Assembly: GCA_964568775.1 (NCBI GenBank)
Contig: CAZMQW010000004.1
Span: 164-64,163, forward strand
DNA from: an uncultured Candidatus Saccharibacteria bacterium
GTDB lineage: Bacteria > Patescibacteriota > Minisyncoccia > Minisyncoccales > MHMH01
DNA: 64,000 nucleotides
Direction: 5' to 3'
The notes beneath the pieces were generated by a model, which saw nothing but the letters and a program-made list of their open reading frames with translations, was not told the DNA's origin and searched no databases. Positions 348-45,826 of this stretch are shown here, piece after piece (within the stretch, counting starts at the first letter, position 1; every line of letters starts with the position of its first letter). Made by a program: the position numbers and the translations under genes.

Positions 348-384
348 AAATCGCCAACCAGGCGGTTTTTTGGTAGAATAGAGT
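348..384 (+). promoter_or_regulatory. hairpin + T6 + extended -10 (TGGTAGAAT) module, copy 1
   Basis: aaatCGCCaaccaGGCGgTTTTTTGGTAGAATagagt. TAGAAT is at 374-379 and the pcm ATG at 387, 7 nt later. Near-identical copies lie at 13488-13524 and 35443-35473. Confidence 0.5.
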
Positions 385-386
385 TG

Positions 387-986
387 ATGGAATTAGTTGA
401 TTCTTTAATAAAAGACGGCTGGCTGAAAACGCCCAGGATTATTGGAGCTTTCCGGAAGGTAAAAAGAATAGATTTTTTGCCCCAAGACATTAAGGATTTA
501 GCTGAATTGAACGAAGCTTTGCCGATTGGCTACGGTCAGACCATTTCCCAACCCTTAATAGTTGCTTTTATGCTGGAACAGTTGCAGCCCCAGCCCGGCG
601 ATAAGATATTAGATATTGGTGCCGGTTCCGGTTGGACCACAGCTCTACTGGCTGAGATAGTGGGGAATAGGGGAAAGGTTGTGGCTATTGAGCTCGTCCC
701 CGAGCTGAAAGCATTCAGCCAAAAAAATGTAAAGCATAAGAACGTGCAATTCATTTGCGCTGACGGCGCCAAGGGTTATAAGAAAGAAGCGCCTTTTGAC
801 AAAATTCTGGCTTCGGCCGCAGTACAAGAGAAGGTGCCTGTAGAATGGAAAAAACAATTAAAAACAGGCGGCCGGATAGTCACCCCGATCGGCTCCTCCG
901 TCTGGCTTTTCATTAAGAAATCGGCCGACGAGTTTGTTGAAAAAGAATTTCCCGGCTTTGCTTTCGTGCCTTTGATAGAAACATGA
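387..986 (+). CDS. pcm: protein-L-isoaspartate O-methyltransferase
   Basis: GYGQTISQPLIVAFMLEQL and the SAM-binding motif DIGAGSGWTTALLAEIVG. I prefer the ATG at 387 over the TTG at 384. Confidence 0.85.
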   Translation: MELVDSLIKDGWLKTPRIIGAFRKVKRIDFLPQDIKDLAELNEALPIGYGQTISQPLIVAFMLEQLQPQPGDKILDIGAGSGWTTALLAEIVGNRGKVVAIELVPELKAFSQKNVKHKNVQFICADGAKGYKKEAPFDKILASAAVQEKVPVEWKKQLKTGGRIVTPIGSSVWLFIKKSADEFVEKEFPGFAFVPLIET

Positions 987-1918
987 AAAAATTCATCCCA
1001 ATCATAATTATTGTTTGCCTTTTTATAGTTTTCGTGCCCAAAAATCCTTTTGCCGACGAAGAGATGCTTTTTCCTGTTGAAAAAGGGGAAAGCTCCAAGG
1101 AGATTGCTCTTAATCTAGAAGCAGACGGTTTGATCTGGTGGGGACCTCTTTTCCGAGTTTATGTTTTATTGACCGGCCAGGCCGGAGATTTGCAGGCTGG
1201 CACGTACCGGTTCTCTTCCTCAAACAGTCTTTTTAGCCTGGTTAGAGATATGGCTAATGGCGACATTGCCCAGGAAGAATTCACTATTATTGAGGGCTGG
1301 AATTTAAGGGATATCGGTTTTTATCTTGAAAACAAGGGTATGGCCCGAGCCGAGGAACTCTGGGAATTAACCGGCCTTCCTTTAGATACGCAATCCCGGG
1401 AAGGCTATTTGTTCCCTGATACTTATCTGGTCAGGCACAACGCTTCTCTAACAGAAATCCTTGCTAAGATGCAGGCCAATTTTGATAAAAAAACAGCCTC
1501 GTTGCTGGTAGAAATTGAAAAACAGGGCAAAACGCTTTCTGAAATCATCACCATGGCTTCTCTGATCGAGAAGGAAGTCAGAACAAAGGAAGACAAGGAA
1601 ACAGTTTCTGGTATTTTTTGGAAAAGGATTGCTGCTGGCAGGCCTTTGGAAAGCTGTGCCACCATTGCTTACATTAAAGGAGTCAGCCAGTGGCGCTATT
1701 CGTTTGAAGATACCAGAATTGAATCTTCCTACAACACTTATTTGAACTACGGCTTGCCGGCCGGCCCGATCTGCAATCCCGGCTTAGAAAGCATTGAGGC
1801 CGCCTTACACCCCAGAGAGAGCGATTATTGGTACTGGCTTTCCACTCCCGAGGGCGAAACTATTTTCACCAAAACACTGTCTGAGCACAATGCGGCCAAG
1901 GCGGAATACCTGAAATAA
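983..1918 (+). CDS. mltG: endolytic murein transglycosylase MltG/YceG family
   Basis: N-terminal TM segment, EGYLFPDTY motif, and a C-terminal SxYNTYxxxGLPxGPICNPG-like stretch. Overlaps the pcm stop as ATGA. Confidence 0.85.
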   Translation: MKKFIPIIIIVCLFIVFVPKNPFADEEMLFPVEKGESSKEIALNLEADGLIWWGPLFRVYVLLTGQAGDLQAGTYRFSSSNSLFSLVRDMANGDIAQEEFTIIEGWNLRDIGFYLENKGMARAEELWELTGLPLDTQSREGYLFPDTYLVRHNASLTEILAKMQANFDKKTASLLVEIEKQGKTLSEIITMASLIEKEVRTKEDKETVSGIFWKRIAAGRPLESCATIAYIKGVSQWRYSFEDTRIESSYNTYLNYGLPAGPICNPGLESIEAALHPRESDYWYWLSTPEGETIFTKTLSEHNAAKAEYLK

Positions 1919-1929
1919 GTCTAAAACTG

Positions 1930-1957
1930 TTGACAAAATCAGTGATTCGATTATAAT
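1930..1957 (+). promoter_or_regulatory. sigma70-type promoter of an orphan transcription unit
   Basis: TTGACA (1930-1935), 16-nt spacer, TATAAT (1952-1957). Confidence 0.55.
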
Positions 1958-1963
1958 GGGTGC

Positions 1964-2032
1964 ATGAAAGGAGGTGATGATCCTATGAGAGCGTTCTTGT
2001 CGGCAACATTAGGATCCGTTAAGTTCTTTTAA
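1964..2032 (+). CDS. possible mini-ORF, 22 aa from ATG 1964 (leaderless position) or 15 aa from ATG 1985 (SD AAGGAGGTG)
   Basis: MKGGDDPMRAFLSATLGSVKFF. ATG 1964 lies 6 nt after the -10 box. The in-frame ATG 1985 lies 7 nt after AAGGAGGTG. A second SD-led 4-codon ORF (MTWT) starts at 2103. Confidence 0.2.
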   Translation: MKGGDDPMRAFLSATLGSVKFF

Positions 2033-3009: not shown

Positions 3010-3025
3010 TTTATGTTATGATAAA

Positions 3026-3586
3026 ATGGAATATATGGCAGAAAAATCTTTAAAAGGCAAAAAAATAGCCGTAATTATCGCTTTTCGCGAGTTCCGGGAC
3101 ATAGAATATTTTATTCCCCGTAATATTTTGGCTGGCGCGGGAGCCCAGATTGTAACTTGCAGTTCTCAAAAAGGGATCGCTGTCGGTGCTGACGGGGGAG
3201 AGGCGCAGGTGAATTTGATTGTTCAAGAAATTAAAGTTGAAGATTATGACGCTTTGGTTTTTATCGGTGGGGCCGGCATGGTCAAGAATTTGGATAATCC
3301 TGATTTTCAAAGAATTGCCAGGGAAGCAGTTGAAAAAGGCAAGATTTTGGGAGCCATTTGCATTGCCCCGGCCTTACTAGCCAAAGCAGGTGTTTTAGCT
3401 GGCAAAAATGCGACTGTTTGGTCTAATCCTTTGGATAAATCAGCCGTTAAAATACTAAAAGAAGAAGGAGCTAAATATGTGGCCGAAGACATAGTAATTG
3501 ATGGCAGAATTATTACTGCCAGCGGTCCGCCCGTTGCCCGGCAATTCGGCGAAAGTATTGTCAACCTCTTGACAAAGGAATCATAG
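3026..3586 (+). CDS. DJ-1/PfpI family protein
   Basis: KKIAVIIA..., DALVFIGGAG, nucleophile-elbow-like GAICIAPALLAKAGVL, and a typical length of 186 aa. Confidence 0.8.
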   Translation: MEYMAEKSLKGKKIAVIIAFREFRDIEYFIPRNILAGAGAQIVTCSSQKGIAVGADGGEAQVNLIVQEIKVEDYDALVFIGGAGMVKNLDNPDFQRIAREAVEKGKILGAICIAPALLAKAGVLAGKNATVWSNPLDKSAVKILKEEGAKYVAEDIVIDGRIITASGPPVARQFGESIVNLLTKES

Positions 3587-4634: not shown

Positions 4635-5822
4635 TTATTCCAAATATTCTTCCAACAGCTTTTTAATATCCAAAGCCTCGTCTCTCAGAGGTTCTCCAAT
4701 TTTGGTTAAAGGCTGGATTATGTCCCAGGCTTCCTGAAAAAGGGCCTGGGCTTTTTCTTCTTCGTTGAGAATCAGCATATTCTCGGCCATGGTCAGTTTC
4801 GATTGGGCCTGCTCTATTTTCTGCTGAGCTTCCTGCATTTCTATTTCTCTTTCGCCCTGGAAAAAGATAAAGAAGGCAATTAAAACTAGAATCAGGGCTA
4901 AAATCAAAATAAAGTTCTTTTTGGGCACAGCCATTTTTATCCGGGACAGCTTCAGACTTAGTTTTAAGTTTTTAAATTTCAGGCTGGGCAGGTTTATCTC
5001 GGGCAGTTTAAATTTAGGCATTTTGAATTCGGGCAGTTTTAAAGAAGGTAGTTTGAAGGAAGGTATTAATTTTGCGATCGGCCTGATAAAGGTTTTTTTA
5101 AAAGAAAAGGGCGGAGCTTCCTGGCGGAAAGTTAATAGCTGTTTAGTTTTGGGATCATCGTTAACCAGCAAAAAAAGGCAGGCTCCCGACACTTCGTTCA
5201 GGATTTGCTTTTTCTTTTTTATTATTTCTTTCAATTCTTTAGCATTGGCCACTTGTTTTAATTGCTTCAAAAAGCCTTTATCCTTGGTCAGAACGGAAAA
5301 AATTTCTTTATTCAGGACGATAACTTTATCGTTTTGGGCTAGTTTGCCAGCAGCAATGCTGCCAAAAACCTTGAGGGGATGGTTGGTTGACTCCCGGGAT
5401 TCCAAGTTCTGGCTGATATCCGAGAGCTCATTGTTTCTAACCAGTAGTATTTTCATCTGGCCTATTTTTGTAAAGTTTAAAGTAAAATTACTCAAACTCA
5501 AAACGCTGAAATTCAGATTGCCCAGCCAGTCAACATTGCCTTTTTGGATTTCCGCTTCCAAAAATTCATTTGCTTTCTTCAAACAGTCCCGCAAGCTCTG
5601 ACTGCAGGATTTTCTGAGTCCGGCACTGTAGTATTCTTTATGGATGATAGAAACCAGATTGTTCAGCAAGCGGGCGTTCTGGGGCAAAATCTGCTTCAGC
5701 TCGCCGCTCATGTATAAATTGCCCAGCTTTTTTTCGTAGATGCTGGCTGGTTCGTAGCTGAAAGTGCCGATGGCTCTATCTTCTTTGTTTTTAGGGATGA
5801 ATTGTAGTTCAAAAACCTGCAT
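4635..5822 (-). CDS. hypothetical single-pass membrane protein with a (x-K-L-P-x) pentapeptide repeat tract
   Basis: 395-aa ORF: N-terminal globular part, repeat tract, TM segment FILILALILVLIAFFIFF, and a C-terminal coiled-coil-like tail. I recognise no family with confidence. Confidence 0.6.
   Translation of the reverse strand: MQVFELQFIPKNKEDRAIGTFSYEPASIYEKKLGNLYMSGELKQILPQNARLLNNLVSIIHKEYYSAGLRKSCSQSLRDCLKKANEFLEAEIQKGNVDWLGNLNFSVLSLSNFTLNFTKIGQMKILLVRNNELSDISQNLESRESTNHPLKVFGSIAAGKLAQNDKVIVLNKEIFSVLTKDKGFLKQLKQVANAKELKEIIKKKKQILNEVSGACLFLLVNDDPKTKQLLTFRQEAPPFSFKKTFIRPIAKLIPSFKLPSLKLPEFKMPKFKLPEINLPSLKFKNLKLSLKLSRIKMAVPKKNFILILALILVLIAFFIFFQGEREIEMQEAQQKIEQAQSKLTMAENMLILNEEEKAQALFQEAWDIIQPLTKIGEPLRDEALDIKKLLEEYLE
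4944..5072 (-). repeat. in-frame tandem 15-nt repeats encoding KLIPS FKLPS LKLPE FKMPK FKLPE INLPS LKFKN LKLSL KLS
   Basis: Read directly from the translation and the periodic DNA (tttaaatttcaggc / tttaaatttaggc / tttgaattcgggc ...). Confidence 0.7.
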
Positions 5823-5851
5823 ATTTTTCTATTATAAAATTTATTGATTCT

Positions 5852-7194: not shown

Positions 7195-7206
7195 TAAGAT
7201 TAACTT
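7195..7206 (+). promoter_or_regulatory. -10 box TAAGAT placed 6 nt before the thpR ATG (leaderless geometry)
   Basis: tatTAAGATtaacttATG. Confidence 0.4.
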
Positions 7207-7707
7207 ATGAAACACCGCGTTTTTATTGCTATTAATCTGCCCGCAGGCATTAAAAACCAGCTGGTGAATTATCAGGCCAAATGGCCGGAATTGCCGGTGC
7301 GCTGGACCAAAAAAGAGAATCTGCACGTTACTTTTGATTTTCTGGGATATTTGACTGACGAGGAATTGGTGAAAGTTTGCCAAGATACTCAGGGGATGGC
7401 TTTAAAACACCAGTCTTTTTCCGTCACTCTCAATAAGATTTGTTACGGTCCGCCAGACAAAATGCCACCCCGCATGGTCTGGGTTACGGGAGAGAAAATA
7501 AAAGAATTTAACCTGACGCCTCATATTACCTTGGGCAGGATAAAAGCCTGGGAATTCCGGCGTATTGAACCGGACGAAAGGCCTCAGGTTGACGAAGATA
7601 TAAACCTAAACTTTGAAGTTGACTCAATAGAAGTCATGGAAAGTCAATTGAAAAGAGGGGGCTCAACTTACACTATTTTAGAATCATGTCCGCTCAGAAA
7701 AAATTAA
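7207..7707 (+). CDS. thpR: RNA 2',3'-cyclic phosphodiesterase (2H family, LigT/ThpR)
   Basis: Two H-x-T-x motifs (HVTFDFLG and HITLGRI) at the spacing typical of 2H phosphoesterases. Confidence 0.8.
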   Translation: MKHRVFIAINLPAGIKNQLVNYQAKWPELPVRWTKKENLHVTFDFLGYLTDEELVKVCQDTQGMALKHQSFSVTLNKICYGPPDKMPPRMVWVTGEKIKEFNLTPHITLGRIKAWEFRRIEPDERPQVDEDINLNFEVDSIEVMESQLKRGGSTYTILESCPLRKN

Positions 7708-13487: not shown

Positions 13488-13524
13488 GAATCGCCAAGTA
13501 GGCGGTTTTTTGGTAGAATAGAGT
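13488..13524 (+). promoter_or_regulatory. hairpin + T6 + extended -10 module, copy 2
   Basis: Identical to copy 1 at 32 of 34 nt, with both differences in the hairpin loop. TAGAAT is at 13514-13519 and the ATG at 13527, 7 nt later. Confidence 0.5.
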
Positions 13525-13526
13525 AT

Positions 13527-14783
13527 ATGAAAAAGTTAAGCTTTTTAAGGAAAAGGCATCCTCGGTTCATCTACCAAGATTACTATTACAAGATTGTCAA
13601 CGATAATCTGCGGATTTGTTTCAAGTTCAAGATTGAACCGAATATCCGCTTCAAACCGGAAATCATTATCAGGAACGTTTCCGCATCAAGGCTGAAGAAG
13701 ATAGGGGAGAGGGCTTTAAACAATTTCGTCTTCCATTTGGGTCTGATAGAGATGTTAAGCTATTGGAAAGCCACCTGTTCACCGGAAATACTGGTCAGAG
13801 CCGGCTATTTGAACAAGGAGCAGATTAAATGGTGGCACGATTTGATAGTCAAAGGAATGGGCCAGTTCTTCTACGAGAATAAAATAGACTGGCGGCCAGC
13901 TGGCTTTTTAAAAATAACCAGCAATCCCAAGATTGAGGTTAAAAGTACCGAAGCCAGTAAGCTTGAGTTTAAAGACAGGTATTTGGTACCAATTGGCGGG
14001 GGCAAGGACTCAATTGTTACGTTGGAGCGCTTGAAAAGCCGAAAGGAATCTTTAAATTGTTTCTTGCTCAATCCCATTCAGGCAGCTAAGAGAATAACCA
14101 GGCTGGCCGGCGTTAGAAAGCCTGTTGTCGTTGAAAGAAAGATTGATCCGGTCTTGTTAAGGTTGAATAAACAAAGCTATCTTAACGGCCACACGCCCTT
14201 CACTGCTCTGCTTTCCTTTTTAAGCGTTTTCTGCGCCGTACTTTTTGACTACGAACACGTTGCTTTTTCCAATGAAAAGTCAGCTGACGAGGGCAATGTC
14301 AGATATCGGGGCAAAGTAATCAACCACCAGTACTCAAAAAGTTCGGAGTTTGAAAATAAATTCAAAGCTTATTGCAAAAAATATCTGGCCAGAAACATTC
14401 ATTATTTCAGCTTTTTGAGAAGATACAGCGAACTTCAAATCTCCCGGCTGTTTGCCAAATACCCCAAGTATTTTATTGCTTTCAGCAGCTGCAACGTGGC
14501 TGCCAAAACAAAGAAGAAATGGTGCGGCCAATGCCCCAAATGCCTTTTCGTTTACGCTGCTTTGTATCCTTATCTTGATAAAAAACAGCTTTTGAAGATA
14601 TTCGGTAAAGATCTTTTTGTCGATAAAAAACTGCTGCCTGTTTTGAAAAGTCTGATAGGGCAGGGGAGACATAAGCCGTTTGAGTGCGTCGGTACTTACC
14701 AGGAGAGCCGGCAAGCTTTAAAATTGAGCCTTAAAAAAGCAAAGCAATCAGGTAAAGTACCTTATTTGTTGACAAAATTATAA
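13527..14783 (+). CDS. PP-loop ATPase-like protein; candidate MurL-type UDP-MurNAc-L-Ala-L-Glu epimerase
   Basis: PP-loop-like LVPIGGGKDS and C-terminal CGQCPKCLF. The gene sits between mraY and murD. The MurL assignment rests on context plus the known ATP dependence of MurL, so it is inference. I chose the start at MKKLSF. Confidence 0.5.
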   Translation: MKKLSFLRKRHPRFIYQDYYYKIVNDNLRICFKFKIEPNIRFKPEIIIRNVSASRLKKIGERALNNFVFHLGLIEMLSYWKATCSPEILVRAGYLNKEQIKWWHDLIVKGMGQFFYENKIDWRPAGFLKITSNPKIEVKSTEASKLEFKDRYLVPIGGGKDSIVTLERLKSRKESLNCFLLNPIQAAKRITRLAGVRKPVVVERKIDPVLLRLNKQSYLNGHTPFTALLSFLSVFCAVLFDYEHVAFSNEKSADEGNVRYRGKVINHQYSKSSEFENKFKAYCKKYLARNIHYFSFLRRYSELQISRLFAKYPKYFIAFSSCNVAAKTKKKWCGQCPKCLFVYAALYPYLDKKQLLKIFGKDLFVDKKLLPVLKSLIGQGRHKPFECVGTYQESRQALKLSLKKAKQSGKVPYLLTKL

Positions 14784-16575: not shown

Positions 16576-16579
16576 AACA

Positions 16580-29638: not shown

Positions 29639-29747
29639 TAATGAAACCTACGGCGAAAGAAAGCAGAGAAATCAGGATGACGCCGACAACTAAAATGATA
29701 TCAGACTGGTTGTTTTTGACAAATTGTTTGAACTTTGCTAAATTCAT
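29544..29747 (-). CDS. possible small membrane protein (67 aa), overlaps the start of the reductase gene out of frame
   Basis: TM segment IILVVGVILISLLSFAVGFIIA. Doubtful because of the ~90-nt overlap. Confidence 0.3.
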   Translation of the reverse strand: MNLAKFKQFVKNNQSDIILVVGVILISLLSFAVGFIIAKNNGKEPIKIESGYYRSRDSRTVSWLETV

Positions 29748-29752
29748 ATTAT

Positions 29753-32415: not shown

Positions 32416-32426
32416 ACTAATTTATC

Positions 32427-33629
32427 TTATCTGATTTGTTTGATTAATTCAATAGCTTTGTCCAGCTGGGGGTCAAGATCTTCGGCGTAATCGTCCTCGG
32501 TCATTTCTATTTCAACGTCGGGAGCCAACCCTTCGCCGTCAATCAAGGTGCCGTTGGGCGTCAACCATCTGGCCACGGTCACTTTGACCGAACCTTTGGT
32601 TAAATCCTCCAGGGTTTGAACCGAACCTTTGCCAAAAGACTGCTCGCCTACCAGCAGAACGTCTCTGTTGTCTCTCAAAGCGCCAGCCAGAATCTCCGAG
32701 CCCGAAGCCGAACCCTGATTAATAAGAACAATTAAAGGATAGGTTGAAAGCTGGCCCGCGCCCTGAGCCAGATATTCTTTGTTTTCTTTTTTGCCACCGA
32801 AATCCTCAACCGTCACCACCTGGCCTTTTTCCAAAAACCAGCCCGCGATTGATTGAGCCACTTCCAAGTAGCCGCCCGGATTGTTTCTCAAATCCAAAAT
32901 AATTCTGTCGGCCTGGCTGTTGAGAATCTGAACGCCAGCTTGCTGGAAAGCTGTGCGGCCGGTTTCGGAAAAGTGATAAAGTTTGATATAGGCAATGTTA
33001 TCCTCTTTCATCTCCAGCTTCAGAGAAGGTATTTCAACCACGTCTCTGACAATGCTGATTTCTTTTGTTTCGGACCAGCCTTCCCGGAAAATCGTCAGCA
33101 CAACTTCTGTGTTTTTGGGTCCGCGAATAAGCTTGACTGCGTCGTCAGTCGTCATCCCGGCAGTAGAAGTTTCGTCCACCTTAAGAATCTTGTCGCCGGC
33201 CAAAAGACCTGCCCGGAAAGCCGGAGTGCCCTCTAAAGGAGCAACCACAGTCAATTCATTATTTCTGATGCCTATTTCCATGCCGACTCCCTGGAATTCG
33301 CCCGAAACATCCTCTTTGAAAATCTTGGAATCGGCCGGGGGCATGAAAACCGTGTAAGGATCTTTCAAGGAACTGACCATGCCAGAAATCGCCCCGTAAA
33401 TCATCTGCTGGTAGTCTATTTTGTCAGGGTCTACGAATTCTTTCTCCAGAACCTGCCAGGCTTCCCAGAAAAGGGAGAAATCAAATTCAGCCGGCTCGCC
33501 CGATTCGGTGTTGATTAAACAAGCGGGCGGGGCAACTGGTATCTGGGATTGGCGGAAATAAAAGCCGCCCGCAAACCCGGCTAAAACAATTATTAACAGG
33601 ACAAATAAAAATATACCTTTTTTCAGCAT
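32427..33629 (-). CDS. S41-family C-terminal processing peptidase
   Basis: A PDZ-like segment, then NQGSASGSEILAGAL and FGKGSVQ. Confidence 0.85.
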   Translation of the reverse strand: MLKKGIFLFVLLIIVLAGFAGGFYFRQSQIPVAPPACLINTESGEPAEFDFSLFWEAWQVLEKEFVDPDKIDYQQMIYGAISGMVSSLKDPYTVFMPPADSKIFKEDVSGEFQGVGMEIGIRNNELTVVAPLEGTPAFRAGLLAGDKILKVDETSTAGMTTDDAVKLIRGPKNTEVVLTIFREGWSETKEISIVRDVVEIPSLKLEMKEDNIAYIKLYHFSETGRTAFQQAGVQILNSQADRIILDLRNNPGGYLEVAQSIAGWFLEKGQVVTVEDFGGKKENKEYLAQGAGQLSTYPLIVLINQGSASGSEILAGALRDNRDVLLVGEQSFGKGSVQTLEDLTKGSVKVTVARWLTPNGTLIDGEGLAPDVEIEMTEDDYAEDLDPQLDKAIELIKQIR

Positions 33630-33669
33630 ATTGAATTATTGTAGCTTAAAACAATGCATCGAGCAAATA

Positions 33670-35442: not shown

Positions 35443-35473
35443 CCATCTTACCAAAAAATCGCCTGGTTGGCGA
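35443..35473 (-). promoter_or_regulatory. hairpin + T6 + extended -10 module, copy 3
   Basis: On minus: tCGCCaaccaGGCGaTTTTTTGGTAAGATgg, matching copy 1 at 27 of 30 nt. Confidence 0.45.
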
Positions 35474-36288: not shown

Positions 36289-36483
36289 CTATTTGGCAAT
36301 TTGTTTTACAAAGTTGCTGATCGAACGATCATAGGTTTTCTCCGCTTCTTTGGAAAAATAGCAAGCGGGTAACTCACCCTTCTCCCGGTGGTGTTTGATG
36401 CATTCGCAGCAAATCCCTTTCCGCGGACAGCCCGGATAGGTGCAGGGGCAGTCTTTTAAGTTTTGCTCTTTTTGGCATTCCAT
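36289..36483 (-). CDS. small Cys-rich protein (64 aa)
   Basis: [27 protein letters not shown] lies 6 nt upstream of the ATG. Confidence 0.55.
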
Positions 36484-36501
36484 ATATTTATCTTAGCAAA
36501 A

Positions 36502-37653
36502 TCAGCCTATCTTGGCTTGTCTCCTGGTGTAAAAGTAAAAAACAGTCCCGCCTAAAAATTCAATCAGCCCGGCCGTGCAGAAAACGTACCTAATACTAGA
36601 AGCATCCATTATCGCTCCCAAAAGCAAAGGCGAGACAACGAAACCCGCTGTCATAGCCGTATCCAGAGAACTCATCAAAGTGCCCATGCCCATATTTTTT
36701 CCCAGCAGAACAGTAATGGCGGTAACTGAAGGTATGGCCACGGCCGTGCCAATACCCATTAAAGCGCTGATAAAAATCAGTTCTCTAAAGCTGTCAACGA
36801 ACGGTATCAGCAACAAACCCGTGCCGCCGATCAGAATGCCGATCATAATAAAAGAAAACTTGTTGTATCTGTCAGCCAGCCGGCCGAACACCCTCTGCAG
36901 CGAAATGTTGAAGAATGTATCAACCGCGAACAAGATGCCGATCTTGGAGGCGGTAATATTGATATTGGAAGCAAATAGCGGCAGGAACACCATTAGGCTG
37001 GCCCGGCCCATGGCCATGCTTATCCTGGTAAAAAAAAGTCCTTTAACAATGTTATTTTTGAAAATTGTCCTGAACGGAATAATATCCTCTTTTTTTCTTA
37101 AATTTTTTATATCGGGCAACAAAAACAAAGTGATAAAGAAAGCCGCCAAAGACAGCAAGGCCATAGCGTAAAAAGCAGCGTCAAACCCGAAAACGTCTTT
37201 GAGCAAACCGCCCAGAATCGGGCCCATGCCCATGCCCAAGAATAAAGCAATGTTGAAAGTGCCCATGGAAGCTGCTTCCTTACCTTCTTTCCTGGTCTCC
37301 CCAACATAAGCCATGGCCACCGGCACAATCATGGCCGAGGTAAACCCGTGAATGATTCTAACCACGGCCAAAGAATAAATGCTGTCGGCCAAAAGATAAA
37401 ACAGGGAAATGACCGCGTAGCCCAGCAATCCCCAGACAATGAATTTTTTCCTGCCTTTCAAATCGGAAATCCGGCCGATGATCGGCAGTAATATCAGGCG
37501 GGACAGGGCAAAGCCGGAGAATATCACTCCCAGCCAAAGACCGCCAGCTCCCAAACTCTCAGCATAAATCGGCATTAAAGGGGTTATAATGCCGATGCCT
37601 AACATGGAAGCAAAGACAGCTACGAATAATGTGTTGAATATTTTCTTATGCAT
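36502..37653 (-). CDS. MFS transporter
   Basis: 12 TM-like segments and GRISDLKGRKK (MFS motif A-like). I chose the start at ATG 37653. Confidence 0.8.
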   Translation of the reverse strand: MHKKIFNTLFVAVFASMLGIGIITPLMPIYAESLGAGGLWLGVIFSGFALSRLILLPIIGRISDLKGRKKFIVWGLLGYAVISLFYLLADSIYSLAVVRIIHGFTSAMIVPVAMAYVGETRKEGKEAASMGTFNIALFLGMGMGPILGGLLKDVFGFDAAFYAMALLSLAAFFITLFLLPDIKNLRKKEDIIPFRTIFKNNIVKGLFFTRISMAMGRASLMVFLPLFASNINITASKIGILFAVDTFFNISLQRVFGRLADRYNKFSFIMIGILIGGTGLLLIPFVDSFRELIFISALMGIGTAVAIPSVTAITVLLGKNMGMGTLMSSLDTAMTAGFVVSPLLLGAIMDASSIRYVFCTAGLIEFLGGTVFYFYTRRQAKIG

Positions 37654-38269: not shown

Positions 38270-38896
38270 TTACTCTCCCGGTTTAAAGCTTCTGGCCATC
38301 TGATAGAACAGATTCCGATAAGCTGACCAGGCATTCTGGTAGGCGTTGAAAGAGAGACCCCAGATAGTGCCGTCAGCCTCTTCAACAAAAACCAGCAGGG
38401 TTTTGAAATCAATTTCCTCCTGGGTGCTCTCAATTTCAATAAAATAAGCGGCATTCCCGTTAATTGTCTCTTCTTTCTCCTCGGTAAACTCAATAATGGG
38501 GATTGCCTGGGTTAAAGATTCTTTGATGCTGACAGCATACTCTTGCACGTTATTCAGGCCTTGATATATCCCCAAATCGTCGTTCTTGATAGTCAGGTTG
38601 GTCCTGAAATTAATCTCCTGGTTTGAAATCTCTTCCTGTCCGTCAACCGCCATAAACAAAATGCTGTAAGGAGGCTCGGCATCTTCCTGCCAGCCGGGCG
38701 GCAAAATTATCTCAAAACCTTCTTTTGCTAAAAGGGTTTCTCCTAACACTTTTGTTGCCTCCGGCCCTCCAGTAACTTCCTCATCTAAAACCAAAGGAGT
38801 CCCTTCTTCCTGCGGTCTGTTTAAATAATAGTGAGTAGCTACCGCTGCAGCAACCAGCACAACTATAACGATGGTAATGATAATTTTTGAGTTCAT
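38270..38896 (-). CDS. hypothetical membrane-anchored extracytoplasmic protein (208 aa)
   Basis: N-terminal TM segment. TAGAAT lies 7 nt upstream of the ATG. Confidence 0.55.
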   Translation of the reverse strand: MNSKIIITIVIVVLVAAAVATHYYLNRPQEEGTPLVLDEEVTGGPEATKVLGETLLAKEGFEIILPPGWQEDAEPPYSILFMAVDGQEEISNQEINFRTNLTIKNDDLGIYQGLNNVQEYAVSIKESLTQAIPIIEFTEEKEETINGNAAYFIEIESTQEEIDFKTLLVFVEEADGTIWGLSFNAYQNAWSAYRNLFYQMARSFKPGE

Positions 38897-38925
38897 CTTC
38901 TTAATTCTACCAAAAAATCGTCTTT

Positions 38926-39345
38926 TTACAAATCAACCAAATAATTTTTTAAGAATTGCTCAACCGCCATAACGGTTTCTTTTTTTAACTTGGGCGGACT
39001 TTCAGCCACCCAAACTGCAAAATTATAGAGTTCTTTATTGTCAACTTTCAACCACCTCTTGTTTTTATGAAGAAAAAGAAAGAGCGTCGTCATAGCGACT
39101 CTCTTATTGCTATTCTGGAAGGGGTGATTTTTAACCATCAAATAAAAAAGAATCGCCGCCTTCCCGGTGAATCCTTTATAAACCGGCTTTCTTTCAAACG
39201 TCTGAAAAGGAACTATCAGAGAACTTTCCAAAATATTGGGGAAACGAGTGGTAAAATCAGGTATCGGCTCGCTGTAGGTCATTAATTCTCTGGCCAGTCT
39301 AAAGGCAGTGTATTCCACTTCGGCAACAGATAAGGTTTTTATCAT
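38926..39345 (-). CDS. doc: Fic/Doc-family toxin (death-on-curing-like)
   Basis: HPFQNSNKRVA matches the Doc variant of the Fic motif. 4-nt overlap with the upstream HTH gene. Confidence 0.7.
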   Translation of the reverse strand: MIKTLSVAEVEYTAFRLARELMTYSEPIPDFTTRFPNILESSLIVPFQTFERKPVYKGFTGKAAILFYLMVKNHPFQNSNKRVAMTTLFLFLHKNKRWLKVDNKELYNFAVWVAESPPKLKKETVMAVEQFLKNYLVDL

Positions 39346-40153: not shown

Positions 40154-40708
40154 CTATTTGAAATAGATGGTGAATTCCAGCGCGTCGTCGTGCTCGGGCA
40201 AACCCGAGGGATTGTCTTTCTGGAAAATAATGGCTCCTCTTTTCATGAAATCGGGCGCTCCCTCGTAATAAGGATTTTCAAACTCCAAAACAGCGGTGAA
40301 GGGCACGAATTCCTCGGTCATCCAGTCGCTCTGGGCCGTGGCAATCGCTTCAGCAATAATCAAACCGTCCCAATCGGTCAAAACGATCGGGAAATCCGCC
40401 TCAAAGAACCAGTAGCCCCGAGCCTCTCCCCTGACTTCTAAGGGACTGCTGACGACTGAATTGGGCCGCGGATTGTCTGCCCGAATCAAGTCAATCTTTT
40501 CCAGTTCGTTGCCGATATCTTCAATAAAGGTTATGTCCCCGGCCCGGCACTGCCTGGGATAAGACTCCATAACAGCATAACCGGCCTCAATACATTCATT
40601 AAAGCTTTCGATGCTGATTTCTGATTGCTTTTTTGATTGAAAACCGAAGTAATAGACAGCGCCTATAACGATCAAAATCAAAATTATTATCAAAACTTTG
40701 TTTCTCAT
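40154..40708 (-). CDS. secreted protein with a Gmad2-type Ig-like domain
   Basis: SSPLEVRGEARGYWFFEADFPIVLTDWDG. TAAGAT lies 6 nt upstream of the ATG. Confidence 0.55.
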   Translation of the reverse strand: MRNKVLIIILILIVIGAVYYFGFQSKKQSEISIESFNECIEAGYAVMESYPRQCRAGDITFIEDIGNELEKIDLIRADNPRPNSVVSSPLEVRGEARGYWFFEADFPIVLTDWDGLIIAEAIATAQSDWMTEEFVPFTAVLEFENPYYEGAPDFMKRGAIIFQKDNPSGLPEHDDALEFTIYFK

Positions 40709-40742
40709 GTTTTTATCTTACCAAAAAAGCATTGGTTTGGCT

Positions 40743-40770
40743 AAAAAGAAACCGCCGAATATCGGCGGCT
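40743..40770 (-). terminator. intrinsic terminator
   Basis: CCGCCGA (40752-40758) pairs with TCGGCGG (40762-40768). A T-rich run follows on minus. Confidence 0.6.
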
Positions 40771-41197: not shown

Positions 41198-41609
41198 ATT
41201 TATTCAGGCAAAAGCCGGCAATCGCCGCAATAATGATAAAATAGCCGATGGTCAGATACCAGCTGTCGATATAAACCGTAATATAACGGTGGGCCAGGCT
41301 AGGCACCCAGGTTGAACTGCCCCAGGCGTGACCCAAAAAGAAACTCAGGGCCACTATGATGTTCAGCGGCCTTTTCAGGTTGATTATTAAAAAAGAAACG
41401 AAAAGGAGATAGAAAATGAAGAACAAAATGAAATAGCCCGGGTGCAAAACCAGCAAGGAAGCGCCCAAGGGACCGCCTTCGTTAAAAAGGCCGTAATTCT
41501 GCCAATAGTATTCCGACTGGCCGGCCAGAGTGAAAATCAAATCCAGCGCCATGACCAAGACAACCGGAACGATAAATGGAATATTGGATTTAGAAAAAGG
41601 ATTTTTCAT
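41181..41609 (-). CDS. hypothetical polytopic membrane protein (142 aa)
   Basis: Four hydrophobic segments. Confidence 0.55.
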   Translation of the reverse strand: MKNPFSKSNIPFIVPVVLVMALDLIFTLAGQSEYYWQNYGLFNEGGPLGASLLVLHPGYFILFFIFYLLFVSFLIINLKRPLNIIVALSFFLGHAWGSSTWVPSLAHRYITVYIDSWYLTIGYFIIIAAIAGFCLNKYADKG

Positions 41610-41614
41610 TGATA

Positions 41615-42451
41615 TTATCTTAACAGGGTCTTCGCCTCTTTAACCAAGGCGCCAATCTTTTTGACCGGTATATTGAAAGCTCGGCCGAATCTCTGCGTGT
41701 TTATCTTCAAAACGTCCTCGGCCAGCATTATGTTCCTGCGGATGAATGCTTCTTTGACGTATCCTCTCAACGAAGGAAGAATGGTCACGGGATAAAGCTT
41801 TCTTTCCTCTATCAGACGCTCCAATCCCCTGTTCCTGGGAAACTTCCAGCCCAGAAGCTCAATGCCCGCGCATAAGGCGTATTTTACGGCCCGGTTGGTG
41901 AACTTGGTGTTGGTCACCATAATTGTCTTTGTTTCCAGCCTTTTTCCTTTAAATCGTGAACCTCCTTTAATATCGAGGTAGCGGGCGTAGTTGGCTAGCA
42001 CATCCTTGGTATGGACTCTTTCGCCAGGCAGGTTGCGGTATTTGCACTCGCCGACATAAAAGACATTACCCTTCTTAGCTGTAAAGTCTATTTCGTGGCC
42101 GGACAGGCACCGGCCCGACAAATACTGGTTCGTTTTGACTTTAAACCCCTCTTCCCTGAAGATTTCTCCAATGTACTTTTCAAAAGGAAACCCGGTCGGC
42201 CCCAGCTTCCTCATCCCGTCCTTTAAAGAAAACCTCAAAGCCGACTGGTTGTTTTTCTTGGCCAGTAGACTTTTTACCCGGTTGAAGATGCGGGACGTCT
42301 TCATCCCGGGCCGAACCTCTTTTTGTACGGTCCCGGCTATTTCTTCAGCCAAAGACCGGGAAGCGCCGACCCTCCTGGCCGAATCGTAAACCTTTTTGAA
42401 AGAAAAAGGCTCTTTTTCGCTTCTTGAATTAATAATATAAATGGGAACCAT
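41615..42451 (-). CDS. ATP-cone domain fused to an Mrr-like PD-(D/E)xK endonuclease domain
   Basis: The N-terminal KEPFSFKKVYDSARRVGAS...AEEIAGTVQKEV is ATP-cone-like. It is followed by FEKYIGEIFREEGF...GHEIDF...VGECKY. Confidence 0.65.
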   Translation of the reverse strand: MVPIYIINSRSEKEPFSFKKVYDSARRVGASRSLAEEIAGTVQKEVRPGMKTSRIFNRVKSLLAKKNNQSALRFSLKDGMRKLGPTGFPFEKYIGEIFREEGFKVKTNQYLSGRCLSGHEIDFTAKKGNVFYVGECKYRNLPGERVHTKDVLANYARYLDIKGGSRFKGKRLETKTIMVTNTKFTNRAVKYALCAGIELLGWKFPRNRGLERLIEERKLYPVTILPSLRGYVKEAFIRRNIMLAEDVLKINTQRFGRAFNIPVKKIGALVKEAKTLLR

Positions 42452-42650: not shown

Positions 42651-42871
42651 TTTAAAGAAACCGAAAGGGGTTCCCGGATTACTTTTCCTTTAGGAAGTTC
42701 TTTTTTATTAATAATTCGGTTGGTTTCCAGGATTAGCGAAAGAGCCTCTTTGAGGTTTTCTTTTACCTCCCGCAGACTTCTTCCCTGAGTATTAACCCCG
42801 GGTATCTCTTCCACCCAACCCAAATACCATTTTCCGCTTTTTTTATAGATGGCCGTGAATTGTTTCACCAT
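42647..42871 (-). CDS. hicB: HicB-family antitoxin
   Basis: FTAIYKKSGKWYLGWVEEIPGVNTQGRSLREVKENLKEAL. 4-nt overlap with hicA. Confidence 0.75.
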   Translation of the reverse strand: MVKQFTAIYKKSGKWYLGWVEEIPGVNTQGRSLREVKENLKEALSLILETNRIINKKELPKGKVIREPLSVSLK

Positions 42872-43013
42872 ACATTTTTATTGTATAACGCACTAAAAAT
42901 AGTGTCAACTTCAAGCTGAATTTTGGCTATTTTTGACTTTCCTTGCGGTATAAATTATCGAAAAGAGATCTCTTGAACAGAGAGTTTAAAAATAATAATT
43001 TAAAATCGAAAAC

Positions 43014-43527: not shown

Positions 43528-43701
43528 CTACATACCCAAAGTCTCAAAAGCCCTATAGACCAAAAACGCCGGCCAAACCAAAGCTTTTAAGAATCCCAGT
43601 ATTCCCGTCCAAAAAGTGGGCGCCTGGCTGATGAAATAAACGGCTGCGCCAATCATCCCCAGGCCATAGACCGCGCTGCCGCCGCGAAATATGTGTTTCA
43701 T
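43528..43701 (-). CDS. small membrane protein (57 aa, below the track cutoff)
   Basis: Hand translation gives MKHIFRGGSAVYGLGMIGAAVYFISQAPTFWTGILGFLKALVWPAFLVYRAFETLGM. TTTTTTGGTAGAAT lies 6 nt upstream of the ATG. Confidence 0.45.
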   Translation of the reverse strand: MKHIFRGGSAVYGLGMIGAAVYFISQAPTFWTGILGFLKALVWPAFLVYRAFETLGM

Positions 43702-43751
43702 ATTTTCATTCTACCAAAAAACAGCTCCAAATAAAAACCGCTAGGTAAAAC

Positions 43752-44255
43752 CTAACGGCTCTTTTTTATAACTTTATCTTTACTTATTACTTCGGCAATC
43801 TGATGAATCTCCCAATTATACATGGTGTCGTCCTTTTCCAGACGGGCAAATTCTACTGCATCTTCTTTCTGGGTGAAATAAAGATAAGATAGAAAAGCCC
43901 GAGGGTTTAGACCGATAGGTCCGTCAGCCACAATATCCCAATTTCCCTTTGGCTGAGGCGAAAGAATCCCGAGATCAATCAAAAGGGAGTGCACTTTCTT
44001 TTTCTGGTCATGGAATCTTCCCATGGCAAAATGCTCATGGTAATGCGGCCAGTCAACCTTCGGTTTGTCATTAACTAAACTAATGAATCCTTTGGCGCTT
44101 TCCTCAAAGTCTTTTATCCACTCTTCCTTGGCGCAAGCGATGCAAGTTAAACCGTCTTTAAATATGGTTACCGACAGACCAAGGTAAATAAAAGAAATGT
44201 TCCGGTATTTCCCGGCCTTCGTGTCCTTACATTTCCAGCACAATCCTTTTAACAC
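43752..44255 (-). CDS. hypothetical protein (167 aa) with an N-terminal CxxC...CxxC module
   Basis: SD gaaaGGAGGaagaagGTG. CWKCKD...FIYLG...CIACAKEEW. Confidence 0.55.
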   Translation of the reverse strand: MLKGLCWKCKDTKAGKYRNISFIYLGLSVTIFKDGLTCIACAKEEWIKDFEESAKGFISLVNDKPKVDWPHYHEHFAMGRFHDQKKKVHSLLIDLGILSPQPKGNWDIVADGPIGLNPRAFLSYLYFTQKEDAVEFARLEKDDTMYNWEIHQIAEVISKDKVIKKSR

Positions 44256-44268
44256 CTTCTTCCTCCTT

Positions 44269-44640
44269 TCAACTATCTAAGTTTTCTAAGGCTTTAATAA
44301 AACTGAATTCCGGATACTTTGGCTTGCCGTCTTTATCTCGGATAACGCAATAAGCCTCAGGAATGGCGCAGAGACACTCGACCCATTTTCCACCGGCATT
44401 GCAGTATTGCTTATCACCCTCTATTTTATAGAAGTCGCAGACACCGAAATCAATCTTGTAGGCTTTTTGGAGATAATAAACTAACTGTCGGGCAGACATC
44501 GGATCCCATAGCCAGGCCCCTGGCAGAAGCTCCATTAACTTATCCAGTCTTTCTTTGACGCTGCCAGCTTGTCGCAGGGCTTCAATTAATTCCTTATTCT
44601 CTTCAATCTGTTTAATTGCCTCTTGAACCTGATTTGCCAT
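44269..44640 (-). CDS. hypothetical Cys-containing protein (123 aa)
   Basis: SD ttaaGGAGGtttaaaATG. Confidence 0.55.
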   Translation of the reverse strand: MANQVQEAIKQIEENKELIEALRQAGSVKERLDKLMELLPGAWLWDPMSARQLVYYLQKAYKIDFGVCDFYKIEGDKQYCNAGGKWVECLCAIPEAYCVIRDKDGKPKYPEFSFIKALENLDS

Positions 44641-44742
44641 TTTAAACCTCCTTAATAATAAGAACTATATTAATAGCTATTTTTAACATCAGTCAACTAA
44701 AAAATCAAGTCTTTTATACTTGATTAACTTCAGACTAACAGA

Positions 44743-44979
44743 CTAAATTTTGGTTATTTTTGATTTGGCTTTTTTAATTTGAGTAGGTTTTTCCAGCAAC
44801 CTTCCTTTGTGCAGCTTATATAAAAGCGGGATTACACCGCAGTCCTTACATCTTCCCCAGCCGCACTTTCCTCTGCCTTTTTTTGATAGTTGCCTGCACA
44901 AAGCAATTTCCCTATTAAAAACATTCTTATTAATAATGTTCTTCTTTAGCCCTGTTTTACAGGTTATTTTCTTTTTCAT
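44743..44979 (-). CDS. small basic Cys-rich protein (78 aa)
   Basis: CRQLSKKGRGKCGWGRCKDCGVIPLLYKL. ATGA overlap with the CYTH gene. Confidence 0.5.
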   Translation of the reverse strand: MKKKITCKTGLKKNIINKNVFNREIALCRQLSKKGRGKCGWGRCKDCGVIPLLYKLHKGRLLEKPTQIKKAKSKITKI

Positions 44980-45497
44980 GGTTTTACTTTTGAATAATTG
45001 TATTTCTCCAAGAAAGATTTGATGTCCGAGTATTTCTTCCCCGACAAAAAACCACCAGCCATGAACTCTTCCTGGGTAACGTCGGCCAAACAGAAATCCG
45101 GCATTTTAAAATTCGCTTTTTCTTCGGCTGAGTTAAACTCAAAATCCGCTAAAGCCAAGCCTGCCAGATCGTCTAGGAAAACATCAATTTCCGCCATTGT
45201 ATTATTTACTGGATAAAAATACCTGATTTTCCTTACTCTTTTACCTTTCAATTTGGACAATCCCTCAAATTCTTTTTCTGAAATAGGAATGTTATATTCG
45301 TGATGCTCCGATGCATCATTGGCTGCAATTGGAAACTTCTTGGTAATCTCGTAATTGTCTCCCTGCCGGCGGATCCGTAAAGTCGGATGCACCGCTGATT
45401 GAGGAATGTAAATATCAAGCACCTCGACTGATTTGCAGTTTTTCAAATCCTTTGGCATTTCCTTGAGTAGAAATGTTCTCTCTAATTCTAACTCCAT
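44976..45497 (-). CDS. CYTH-domain (triphosphate tunnel metalloenzyme) protein
   Basis: The N-terminal LELERTFLL corresponds to the ExExK signature, and the length is ~170 aa. TGCTAGAAT lies 7 nt upstream of the ATG. Confidence 0.7.
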   Translation of the reverse strand: MELELERTFLLKEMPKDLKNCKSVEVLDIYIPQSAVHPTLRIRRQGDNYEITKKFPIAANDASEHHEYNIPISEKEFEGLSKLKGKRVRKIRYFYPVNNTMAEIDVFLDDLAGLALADFEFNSAEEKANFKMPDFCLADVTQEEFMAGGFLSGKKYSDIKSFLEKYNYSKVKP

Positions 45498-45502
45498 ATA
45501 TT

Positions 45503-45826
45503 TTATTCTAGCAGAAAAACGTCTGCTCGACGAATTATTATAATTAAAAAAAGGACGGGCTTGGAGGCAAAGTAGCGAGACTCCGAGTGCTCGTAAAATA
45601 ATTCGGCTGCACTTCCGTCTCCCCAGTTAATGCTGCCGACGCAGTGCATTACGGCCAAACGCGGACTCGTAAATACTACCCATAAAGGCAGATAATACCG
45701 GTGGGCATCTATCAGGCCTATTAAAACCTCCTTCTTACATTCTCTTTCGGCTTCCTCAACTTTTTCATCTTTGAGCTTTTCAAATTGCTCGGTGAATAGC
45801 TGGGAAATACTTGTCTTTTTGGACAT
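45503..45826 (-). CDS. hypothetical protein (107 aa)
   Basis: SD aaaaaGGAGGagaaATG. Confidence 0.5.
   Translation of the reverse strand: MSKKTSISQLFTEQFEKLKDEKVEEAERECKKEVLIGLIDAHRYYLPLWVVFTSPRLAVMHCVGSINWGDGSAAELFYEHSESRYFASKPVLFLIIIIRRADVFLLE

Follow-up and report, generated by a model that had tools for sequence, protein, structure and literature searches.

In other bacteria, leaderless mRNAs are translated by direct binding of the ribosome with initiator tRNA to the AUG at the 5' end. Campylobacter and Helicobacter promoters carry a T-rich stretch before TGn-TAnAAT in place of a weak -35 box, and their mRNAs are mostly leadered and contain a Shine–Dalgarno (SD) sequence. Leaderless genes are recognised by a Pribnow box located 6–8 nt before the start codon (PMC6028130; PMC3160421), as in the TA-led genes of group C in GeneMarkS-2, which are found in Deinococcus-Thermus and in Actinobacteria, for example in Mycobacterium tuberculosis and Streptomyces. 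No direct report on leaderless genes in the Candidate Phyla Radiation (CPR), Patescibacteria or Parcubacteria was found in the literature. Here the same geometry was analysed in 64,000 nt of contig CAZMQW010000004.1 (assembly GCA_964568775.1, an uncultured Candidatus Saccharibacteria bacterium; GC ~43%). This whole stretch is called the window below. At 18 sites of the window a -10-like box, in many cases TA(G/A)(A/G)AT, precedes an ATG by 6–8 nt. These sites are best explained as promoters of the sigma-70 type, mostly extended -10, that are predicted, with a probability of about 0.8, to give leaderless mRNAs. This explanation is preferred because of the spacer peak, the restriction to first genes, the co-occurring promoter elements, the conservation in relatives and the support for the start codons.

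Results

Gene sets and definitions

The nearest relatives of the CTP synthase in the window show 73–76% identity; the metagenome-assembled genomes that encode them bear the names Candidatus Nealsonbacteria, Parcubacteria, Minisyncoccales or Paceibacterota, which places the window in the Parcubacteria group of the CPR/Patescibacteria. JGI samples 3300031551 and 3300031624 as well as run SRR9707468 contain short contigs of this organism. The gene set of the window was defined blindly as the first ATG of long, mutually non-overlapping open reading frames (ORFs), which gave 87 starts and 1373 other ATGs. The clade set consists of 80 pyrG-centred loci from 80 different Parcubacteria genomes (GC 26–50%); the same motif-blind rule gave 1187 genes and 30694 non-start ATGs for comparison, and this set is independent of the sequences in which the pattern was originally found. 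The spacer is the number of bases between the last T of the -10 box and the A of ATG. Significance in the window was calculated with Fisher tests, and background counts were obtained from 100 dinucleotide shuffles. Several genes are called by coordinate: 13527 (MurL-like), 36289 (DUF6485), 38270 (PsbP-like), 40154 (Gmad2-domain), 43528 (57-aa gene) and 44976 ('CYTH' gene).

The box is concentrated 6–8 nt before gene starts

A preliminary description of the window had listed eleven starts with this layout. Its ten instances with coordinates proved exact, with spacers of 6 (five sites), 7 (four) and 8 (one), and the eleventh, gene 51830, has TATTAT at 52052–52057 on the minus strand with a spacer of 6 to ATG 52045. 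Seven unlisted sites also fit the layout, namely those of the DJ-1 gene, rpmA, gene 4635-5822, the S41 peptidase gene, rplI, gene 41181-41609 and ftsW.

In the window, TTTTGSTARRAT was found 7 times against 0.31 expected, and TARRAT-N7-ATG 10 times against 3.1 expected; none of the 100 shuffles reached either count. The loose motif TANNNT stood at spacer 6/7/8 in 7/5/11 of the 87 gene starts, compared with 1.1–1.7 per offset for other ATGs, so that 23/87 starts but only 68/1373 other ATGs had it at spacer 6–8. Stricter motifs gave odds ratios of 20–32: TA[AG][AG]AT was present at spacer 6–8 in 10/87 starts versus 9/1373 other ATGs (p 2e-8), and TG.TA...T in 9/87 versus 5/1373 (p 1e-8). Both were still enriched when the comparison was made with intergenic non-start ATGs (p about 6e-4).

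The clade set gave the same result. TGnTAnnnT occurred before 50/14/15/12 genes at spacer 6/7/8/9 and before 0–8 genes at each of the remaining offsets between 0 and 29, and its frequency at spacer 6–8 was 79/1187 for gene starts versus 160/30694 for other ATGs (p 1e-52). The preliminary description had named a flat distribution of -10-to-ATG distances as a result that would refute it; the distribution is sharply peaked instead, both in the window and in the clade set. Because genes were called from the first ATG, a TAG or TAA within the box at spacer 6 could act as an in-frame stop and create such a peak. This artefact was rejected, since boxes that cannot be stops (TG.TA[CT]..T) gave 26/11/8 genes at spacer 6/7/8 and 0–5 elsewhere in the clade. 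The leaderless-type signal is thus shared across the lineage.

A second excess of -10-like boxes was seen in the window 11–12 nt before ATG (TA..AT at spacer 12: 5 versus 0.4 expected), at gene starts 6873, 20046, 21944, 25838 and 62555. Examples are TGGTATAGT-12-ATG (25170-25838) and TAGAAT-12-ATG (6418-6873). Such boxes would give leaders of 4–6 nt with no SD. This excess was sought in the related genomes and was not seen there.

The box behaves as an extended -10 element at operon heads

In the clade set, the motif was found at 69/765 first-in-operon genes (with an upstream gap or a divergent neighbour) but at only 3/322 operon-internal genes. In the window it precedes about 13 of the 56 operon-first genes, plus a few internal promoters, three of which are apparent (ftsW, 41181 and 44976). 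A ribosome-binding motif would not be expected to behave in this way.

When 108 clade genes selected only for TAnnnT at spacer 6 were aligned, T (.64) and G (.47) appeared at -15/-14, and T (.67), T (.68) and G (.36) at -35 to -33, which is the canonical 17-bp spacing; T (.58) stood at -1. In the window TGn occupies -15/-14 at 11 of the 18 sites. The 'TGG' of the preliminary description is, by this position, the classical TGn extended -10 element. Its remark that a T-tract and TGG often precede the box was fair, as TGn lies directly before the box in 7/11 listed sites, with T6 and TGG in five (pcm, 13527, 38270, 40154 and 43528) and TGC in two (36289 and CYTH).

In contrast, its statement that no -35 box is apparent has to be withdrawn. 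Perfect TTGACA is located at 16–17 bp for hicB, rpmA and the mini-ORF, in addition to the TTG in the clade alignment, and the hicB promoter has 11/12 consensus matches. At TGn sites the hexamer at 16–17 bp matches TTGACA in 3–4 of 6 positions (TCGCCA twice, TAGCCA, TTGTAA); TCGCCA belongs to pcm and 13527 and TAGCCA to 40154, all at 17 bp. Among the seven sites without TGn, three have a better -35 (TTGACA for the mini-ORF and hicB, TTTACG for thpR) and the other four do not; one hexamer in this group is TTGAAT. The extended -10 element would explain why the -35 is weak where TGn is present and stronger at three of the seven sites that lack it; rpmA carries perfect TTGACA and TGn together. A generic promoter/terminator scan (9/12 matches including the -35) found only hicB and 38270 among the sites and was rejected as unsuited to extended -10 promoters.

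In bacteria generally, the distance from the -10 element to the transcription start site (TSS) centres on 7 bp; among E. coli promoter variants, a YRY triplet fixes the TSS in 93% when it stands 7 bp after the box and in 79% when it stands 8 bp after it (PMC12641261). All 18 window sites start with ATG. Counted from the box, its A is base 7 or 8 at 13/18 sites, a pyrimidine stands at -1 in 13/18, and the Y-A-T context is present in 13/18.

The T-run lies in the promoter spacer and may often be shared with a terminator

The preliminary description had regarded the T-tract as a possible upstream promoter element. The run is instead placed within the spacer at -20 to -15, not upstream of the -35, and is not UP-like. 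Of 155 unique leaderless-type promoters from all loci, 15 have a run of T≥5 whose last base is at -15, against 1.4 expected, and thus that last T is the T of TGn.

The T-run could be nothing but a terminator tail that adjoins promoters in a compact genome. This is less likely, although several observations favour it. In relatives, strong hairpins of unrelated sequence (dG -12 to -29 kcal/mol) run directly into T6-GG-TAGAAT, and a co-directional gene ends 40–130 nt upstream in all but one case; these hairpins look like terminators whose U-tail doubles as promoter spacer. In the window, pcm, 13527 and 35445 fold as A-run/hairpin/T-run structures, in which four G-C pairs are extended by A-T pairs to a dG of about -12 to -15. 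Most leaderless-type promoters of the clade have no T-run. However, pcm, 40154 and 43528 each have a separate strong terminator 20–40 nt further upstream, and their own T6 follows a stem of at most 3–4 bp. The T6 of 38270 has no strong hairpin upstream, and rpmA promoters in divergent position, which have perfect TTGACA and lack a hairpin, carry a T5 ending at -15. Because these runs occur without an adjoining strong terminator and end exactly at the T of TGn, the T-run is taken to be also part of the promoter. This agrees with a spacer organisation described elsewhere, in which an AT-tract next to the -10 and a G-rich extended -10 region after it both raise transcription (PMC12641261). The earlier claim that several of the boxes directly follow a terminator T-run therefore holds for some sites, whereas at pcm, 40154 and 43528 the adjoining T-run belongs to the promoter only.

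Three copies of the cassette aTCGCCAAnnnGGCGgTTTTTTGGTAGAAT are found in the window (352 +, 13492 + and 35472 -), and it is repeated before different genes in the related loci L005, L022, L097, L117, L120, L121, L124, L126 and L143. Its palindrome CGCC-N5-GGCG (352-364 +, 13492-13504 + and 35460-35472 - in the window) has a flanking A-run and T-run, has a loop that nearly always starts with AA, and precedes GGTAGAAT at unrelated genes in several species. The cassette folds as an A-run/CGCC-loop-GGCG/T-run hairpin, with TCGCCA exactly at the -35 position. We read it as a probable terminator-promoter fusion shaped by joint constraints. It could alternatively be a repeat spread by recombination, or a protein-binding palindrome.

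Orthologues and start codons

For pcm, 79 orthologous loci with 58–78% identity were found in metagenomes. Where pcm follows a closely preceding gene the box is absent. Where pcm stands first in a unit, (TGG)TAGAAT, TATAAT or TACAAT is found in many distinct orthologues exactly 6 nt (in a few 7–8) before the homologous ATG, and this geometry is kept though the sequence further upstream has diverged. About 17 of 58 distinct rpmA orthologue upstreams have a TGn-extended -10 located 6–11 nt (mostly 6–9) before ATG, most of them with a TTGACA-type -35; some of the remaining ones have a promoter 20–30 nt upstream, also with no SD. The box is also found in a thpR orthologue (TGTTAAGAT-8-ATG in L082) and in ftsW of L005 (TGCTATAAT-6-ATG). 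A tblastn search of 24 window proteins against all fetched loci gave orthologues only for pcm, rpmA, rplI, S41, DJ-1, ftsW and a few others, and none for 36289, 38270, 41181, hicB, CYTH and 51830.

If the promoters were real but translation began at a start codon further downstream, the mRNAs would have ordinary leaders. This is quite improbable. The starts of the small or unannotated genes 43528, 51830, 44976 and 41181 are provisional, the mini-ORF has an SD-led ATG 21 nt downstream, and the ATG of the 35445 cassette opens an ORF of only 15 codons. On the other side, 80 pcm orthologue hits align from residue 1–3, with an ATG at the homologous position in most, and Pfam PCMT covers residues 2–198. 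Matches to the PCMT, L27, L9 and DUF6485 profiles begin at the first profile positions, which supports the N-termini of those genes. The proteins of 38270 and 40154 have typical hydrophobic N-terminal anchors, and public JGI gene calls place the starts of pcm and the DJ-1 gene (183 aa) at the same codons, ATG 387 and ATG 3035. Between ATG 13470 and 13527 the longer MurL-like ORF would run through a sequence almost identical to the non-coding pcm promoter, and therefore 13527 is the start. Moreover, the positional peak was measured relative to the first ATG of long ORFs and would vanish if these ATGs were irrelevant.

SD sequences and initiation inside operons

In the window no gene has both the box and an SD-like 4-mer, as the preliminary description had said of its own list; in the clade, 6 of about 1087 genes have both. 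SD-like 4-mers precede 126/1187 clade genes, 21/322 clade operon-internal genes and 3/29 internal genes of the window. Their rarity before internal genes agrees with the detection of the anti-SD motif in only 48% of Parcubacteria (PMC9297842). As a separate observation, the translation of internal cistrons in this lineage is accounted for by neither SD nor leaderless initiation.

SD-like motifs are thus rare, the limited detection of the anti-SD implies that some non-SD mechanism must exist, and upstream regions are A/T-rich in general, so the box might be read as a non-SD ribosome-binding or enhancer motif, like that of Bacteroidota 'group B', in leadered mRNAs whose promoters lie further upstream. 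We consider this very improbable. A group-B motif is expected at internal genes too (PMC6028130), where the box is nearly absent. Its T-A-n-n-n-T pattern is that of a -10 box and not of a generic A-rich stretch, TG and TTG stand at exact sigma-70 distances from it, and hicB and rpmA have a perfect TTGACA-17-box arrangement. That the pattern is a by-product of A/T-rich composition, upstream TAA/TAG stops, ORF boundaries and favourable picking is hardly credible and was rejected at the sequence level: loose TANNNT is common at all offsets (about 50 per offset in the 1187 clade genes, and 100 at offset 0), the rplI box includes the upstream stop codon and TAG/TAA at spacer 6 is in frame with ATG, but shuffles never reached the observed counts, the enrichment was significant against intergenic non-start ATGs, boxes unable to be stops gave the same peak, and the extended motif was 12-fold over neighbouring offsets in independent genomes.

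Perfect SD sequences are nevertheless present in the window. AAGGAGG occurs 27 times versus 12.3 expected, and about 20 genes have it 4–10 nt before the start. These genes cluster at 43.7–58 kb (43700-58700, mostly minus strand), with additional ones at 2304, 14821, 19540 and 30047. Nearly all of them had no match in Pfam, PHROG and NCBIfam; the exceptions are a PRPP-synthetase-like gene, an aminotransferase and an Orn/DAP decarboxylase. The conserved genes pcm, rpmA, rplI, rplL, pyrG and ftsW have no SD. The two initiation styles seem to divide by gene class, and the SD-led set may be a mobile island. For a prophage at 43.7–58 kb, no PHROG, Pfam or NCBIfam matches were found.

Sites in the window

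All sites are collected in Table 1. The label 'PP-loop gene' given earlier to 13527-14783 (+) was not borne out. This gene is not evidently PP-loop; its product matches NCBIfam MurL NF041275 (UDP-MurNAc-L-Ala-L-Glu epimerase) with 290 bits, below the equivalog cut-off, and its cassette is the same as that of pcm. It stands just upstream of a murD-like/ftsW/murG cluster. The DJ-1 site follows directly after the terminator of gene 2304-2972. The 'CYTH' gene lies 5 nt after an SD-led upstream gene, and its product had no match in Pfam and NCBIfam. At 35445-35472 the ATG next to the box is not a leaderless start of the real gene, the cupin gene.

Table 1. Box sites of the window with their promoter and terminator elements (lengths in nt stand between box and ATG, lengths in bp between -35 and box).
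Site	Span	Strand	Elements
pcm (PCMT)	352..389	+	hairpin CGCC-AACCA-GGCG 352-364; -35-like TCGCCA, 17 bp; T6 366-371; TGG 371-373; TAGAAT 374-379; 7 nt; ATG 387
Mini-ORF	1930..1966	+	TTGACA 1930-1935; 16 bp; TATAAT 1952-1957; 6 nt; ATG 1964
DJ-1/PfpI gene, unlisted	3019..3037	+	TGA + TAAAAT 3022-3027; 7 nt; ATG 3035
Gene 4635-5822, unlisted	5820..5836	-	TATAAT 5836-5831; 8 nt; ATG 5822
thpR (LigT-like)	7195..7209	+	-35-like TTTACG, 17 bp; no TGn; TAAGAT 7195-7200; 6 nt; ATG 7207
MurL-like gene	13492..13529	+	CGCC-AAGTA-GGCG; T6; TGG; TAGAAT 13514-13519; 7 nt; ATG 13527
ftsW, unlisted	16565..16582	+	TGT + TAAAAT 16568-16573; 6 nt; ATG 16580
rpmA (L27), unlisted	29716..29755	+	TTGACA 29716-29721; 17 bp; TGC + TAAATT 29739-29744; 8 nt; ATG 29753
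rplI (L9), unlisted	32413..32429	-	TAAGAT 32429-32424; 8 nt; ATG 32415
S41 peptidase gene, unlisted	33627..33643	-	TACAAT 33643-33638; 8 nt; ATG 33629
Leadered cassette	35445..35472	-	CGCC-AACCA-GGCG + T6 + TGG + TAAGAT; ATG 5 nt past box; cupin ATG 35373 ~71 nt downstream
DUF6485 gene (36289)	36481..36520	-	hairpin AGCC-AAGATA-GGCT; GATTTTGC; TAAGAT 36495-36490; 6 nt; ATG 36483
PsbP-like membrane-anchored gene (38270)	38894..38931	-	TTGTAA 38931-38926; 16 bp including T6; TGG; TAGAAT 38909-38904; 7 nt; ATG 38896
Gmad2-domain gene (40154)	40706..40768	-	terminator CCGCCGATATTCGGCGG + T-rich tail 40768-40743; TAGCCA, 17 bp; second T6; TGG; TAAGAT 40720-40715; 6 nt; ATG 40708
Gene 41181-41609, unlisted	41607..41625	-	TGT + TAAGAT 41622-41617; 7 nt; ATG 41609
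hicB-hicA operon	42869..42908	-	TTGACA 42908-42903; 17 bp; TACAAT 42885-42880; 8 nt; ATG 42871
57-aa gene (43528)	43699..43760	-	terminator CCGTTAGGT-TTT-ACCTAGCGG + TTTTTATTT upstream; second T6; TGG; TAGAAT 43713-43708; 6 nt; ATG 43701
'CYTH' gene 44976-45497	45495..45535	-	hairpin CGTC-GAGCA-GACG; TTTTTC; TGC; TAGAAT 45510-45505; 7 nt; ATG 45497
Gene 51830-52045	52043..52057	-	-35-like TTGCTT, 16 bp; TATTAT 52057-52052; 6 nt; ATG 52045

Other features near these sites

Several further features were noted. Behind the perfect TTGACA-16-TATAAT of the mini-ORF lies a 385-nt gap without genes (1930-2300 +), with AAGGAGG at 1968 and 2092 and short ORFs after each. The gap sequence is identical in the same-species contig L081, and Rfam gave no match on 1915-2310. 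A ribosomal protein L10 leader (RF00557, 48.6 bits) was detected at 3587-3706 (+) upstream of rplJ-rplL, and rplL itself has no SD (aaaaaataaaatttATG). In the whole window at the gathering threshold, this leader was the only Rfam hit, and the two gene-less gaps beside leaderless sites gave nothing at E<=1.

Just upstream of the MurL-like gene, 13187-13372 (+) has a promoter with TTGACA, 17 bp and TACAAT 13212-13217, followed by ~150 nt without a long ORF. This region is predicted to fold into a closed structure (-53.4 kcal/mol, z = -4.4) and ends with a GGTGG..CCACC stem and T7. It is a candidate unannotated small RNA, with no Rfam match at E<=1. On the minus strand, 40745-40925 has a 12/12 promoter (TTGACA, 16 bp, TATAAT 40897-40892) and ~140 nt to the terminator CCGCCGATATTCGGCGG with its T-run. 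Its inner ORFs encode only 21–35 aa, and it is a candidate small RNA or micro-protein unit before the leaderless promoter of 40154. At ~22000-23300 the plus-strand genes on the left converge with the minus-strand genes on the right, and the cumulative GC skew peaks at 20–22 kb; this pattern suggests a replication terminus.

Discussion

Proposed mechanism and points against it

In the proposed mechanism the sites would be housekeeping sigma-70-type promoters, mostly extended -10 (TGn + TA(G/A)(A/G)AT) with a weak to perfect -35 at 16–17 bp. The preferred TSS would be located 7–8 nt after the box, at the A of ATG, where the pyrimidine before and the T after it would form a Y-R-Y start element. 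The mRNA would begin with AUG at spacer 6–7 and carry a 1–2 nt leader at spacer 8. Translation would follow the leaderless route, in which, as we presume for this organism, the 5'-terminal AUG is bound directly by a ribosome carrying initiator tRNA. The T-run at -20 to -15 would, in compact intergenic regions, double as the U-tail of the upstream terminator hairpin. A segment of ~40–45 bp (hairpin, T6, GG, TAGAAT, N6-7, ATG) could then end one unit and start transcription and translation of the next, and in the CGCC-N5-GGCG version the 5' hairpin arm (TCGCCA) would also serve as the -35. The 5' ends, the leaderless route and termination at the hairpins are all inferred here from sequence. The central claim of the preliminary description, that these mRNAs start at or 1–2 nt from the AUG, is supported at the sequence level by the spacer peak, the restriction to operon heads, the -10/-35 partners and the orthologues, whereas its details on the T-tract and the -35 are not.

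Several points weigh against this explanation or narrow it. At the spacer-8 sites (rpmA, hicB, S41, 4635 and rplI) a 1–2 nt leader is likelier than a leader of zero length. Nanosynbacter lyticus, the only CPR species in the cited promoter survey of 49 species, has a -10-to-TSS distance that varies unusually widely, with a standard deviation of >3.6 bp. The mini-ORF is doubtful as a leaderless gene, because a perfect SD (AAAGGAGGTGA) follows ATG 1964 and precedes a second ATG at 1985, and the ATG at +1 may be incidental. The ftsW box, 4 nt after the upstream gene, is a less certain site and a possible internal promoter; the box of gene 41181-41609, 5 nt past the upstream gene, would likewise be internal and is uncertain. 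For rplI, the upstream S41 gene ends with the TAA that forms part of the box, which could be a coincidence; this site was downgraded because the orthologue upstreams have no consistent box. The 4-bp CGCC/GGCG stem alone is a weak terminator. Among 81 distinct intergenic T5+-Gn-TAnnAT promoters, ATG lies 6–9 nt after the box in 28 and 44 are leadered; the promoter type is thus general and its leaderless placement a subset, so the motif alone is no proof of leaderlessness. T≥4 ends at -15 in only 16/79 clade sites, and the T-tract was accordingly rejected as a clade-wide promoter element and regarded as lineage-specific.

Meaning for the lineage

Parcubacteria may use leaderless initiation as their main translation start for operon-first genes, together with an all-in-one module of ~45 bp (aTCGCCAAnnnGGCGgTTTTTTGGTAGAAT). 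This proposal is tentative and in our judgement has somewhat less than an even chance of being right. The module may consist of a hairpin whose 5' arm serves as -35, T6 as terminator tail and spacer, GG, TAGAAT, N6 and ATG. If true, signals would be compacted here to an extent not described before, and CPR bacteria would offer a low-GC model for leaderless expression, on a background unlike that of the classical high-GC leaderless phyla. A lineage-wide leaderless signal would also give a concrete answer to how first cistrons are translated where the anti-SD is reported lost, in about half of Parcubacteria. Gene callers that assume SD would mis-place CPR starts in metagenome bins, as in the ORF from 13470 through the promoter, and a promoter-at-start model would mend first-gene starts across this large uncultured radiation. 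The consensus TTTTTTGG-TAGAAT-N6-ATG would be a ready expression signal for future CPR genetics, and the hairpin-T6 fusion is a testable case of bases common to terminator and promoter.

Comparison with known systems

The promoters described by Kuo et al. 2025 (PMC12641261) share with these sites the TG at -15/-14, the 17-bp spacing, a -35 that is weak or dispensable with TGn, an AT-tract before the G-rich extended -10, and a TSS 7–8 bp after the box on Y-R-Y. Their AT-tract differs from the uninterrupted T6 found here, which in many cases appears to be shared with a terminator. The sites may also resemble the Campylobacter and Helicobacter promoters in having a T-rich stretch directly before a TGn-extended box.

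The closest likeness is to the leaderless genes of group C, which likewise have TANNNT 6–8 nt from the starts of first genes, no SD and an AUG at the 5' end, the latter being predicted here. The leaderless share is comparable, with 25–50% of transcription units in group C (PMC6028130) and about 13/56 operon-first genes in the window. Toxin-antitoxin operons of M. tuberculosis are leaderless (PMC8485053), and hicBA appears to be so here. The lineage is different, being CPR/Parcubacteria, and its GC of 26–50% contrasts with group C genomes of code 11, which are reported to be almost all high-GC (MetaGeneMark-2 preprint). The box here is the full TA(G/A)(A/G)AT with frequent TGn, whereas high-GC group C genomes have the bare TAnnnT. 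Non-leaderless genes here mostly lack SD too, while group C genomes use SD for the rest. Mycoplasma (group C, code 4) is also reduced and low in GC, with 30–60% of transcripts predicted leaderless and a -10 box beside the start; it is unlike this lineage in using code 4 rather than code 11 and in being phylogenetically unrelated, and that preprint describes no terminator-promoter fusion for it. The geometry is that of the known TA-led/group C pattern, and the principle is not new. The modestly new points are its occurrence in this lineage, whose GC is low to medium, and a compact module, hairpin-T6-GG-TAGAAT-N6-ATG, in which terminator tail and promoter spacer appear to be shared.

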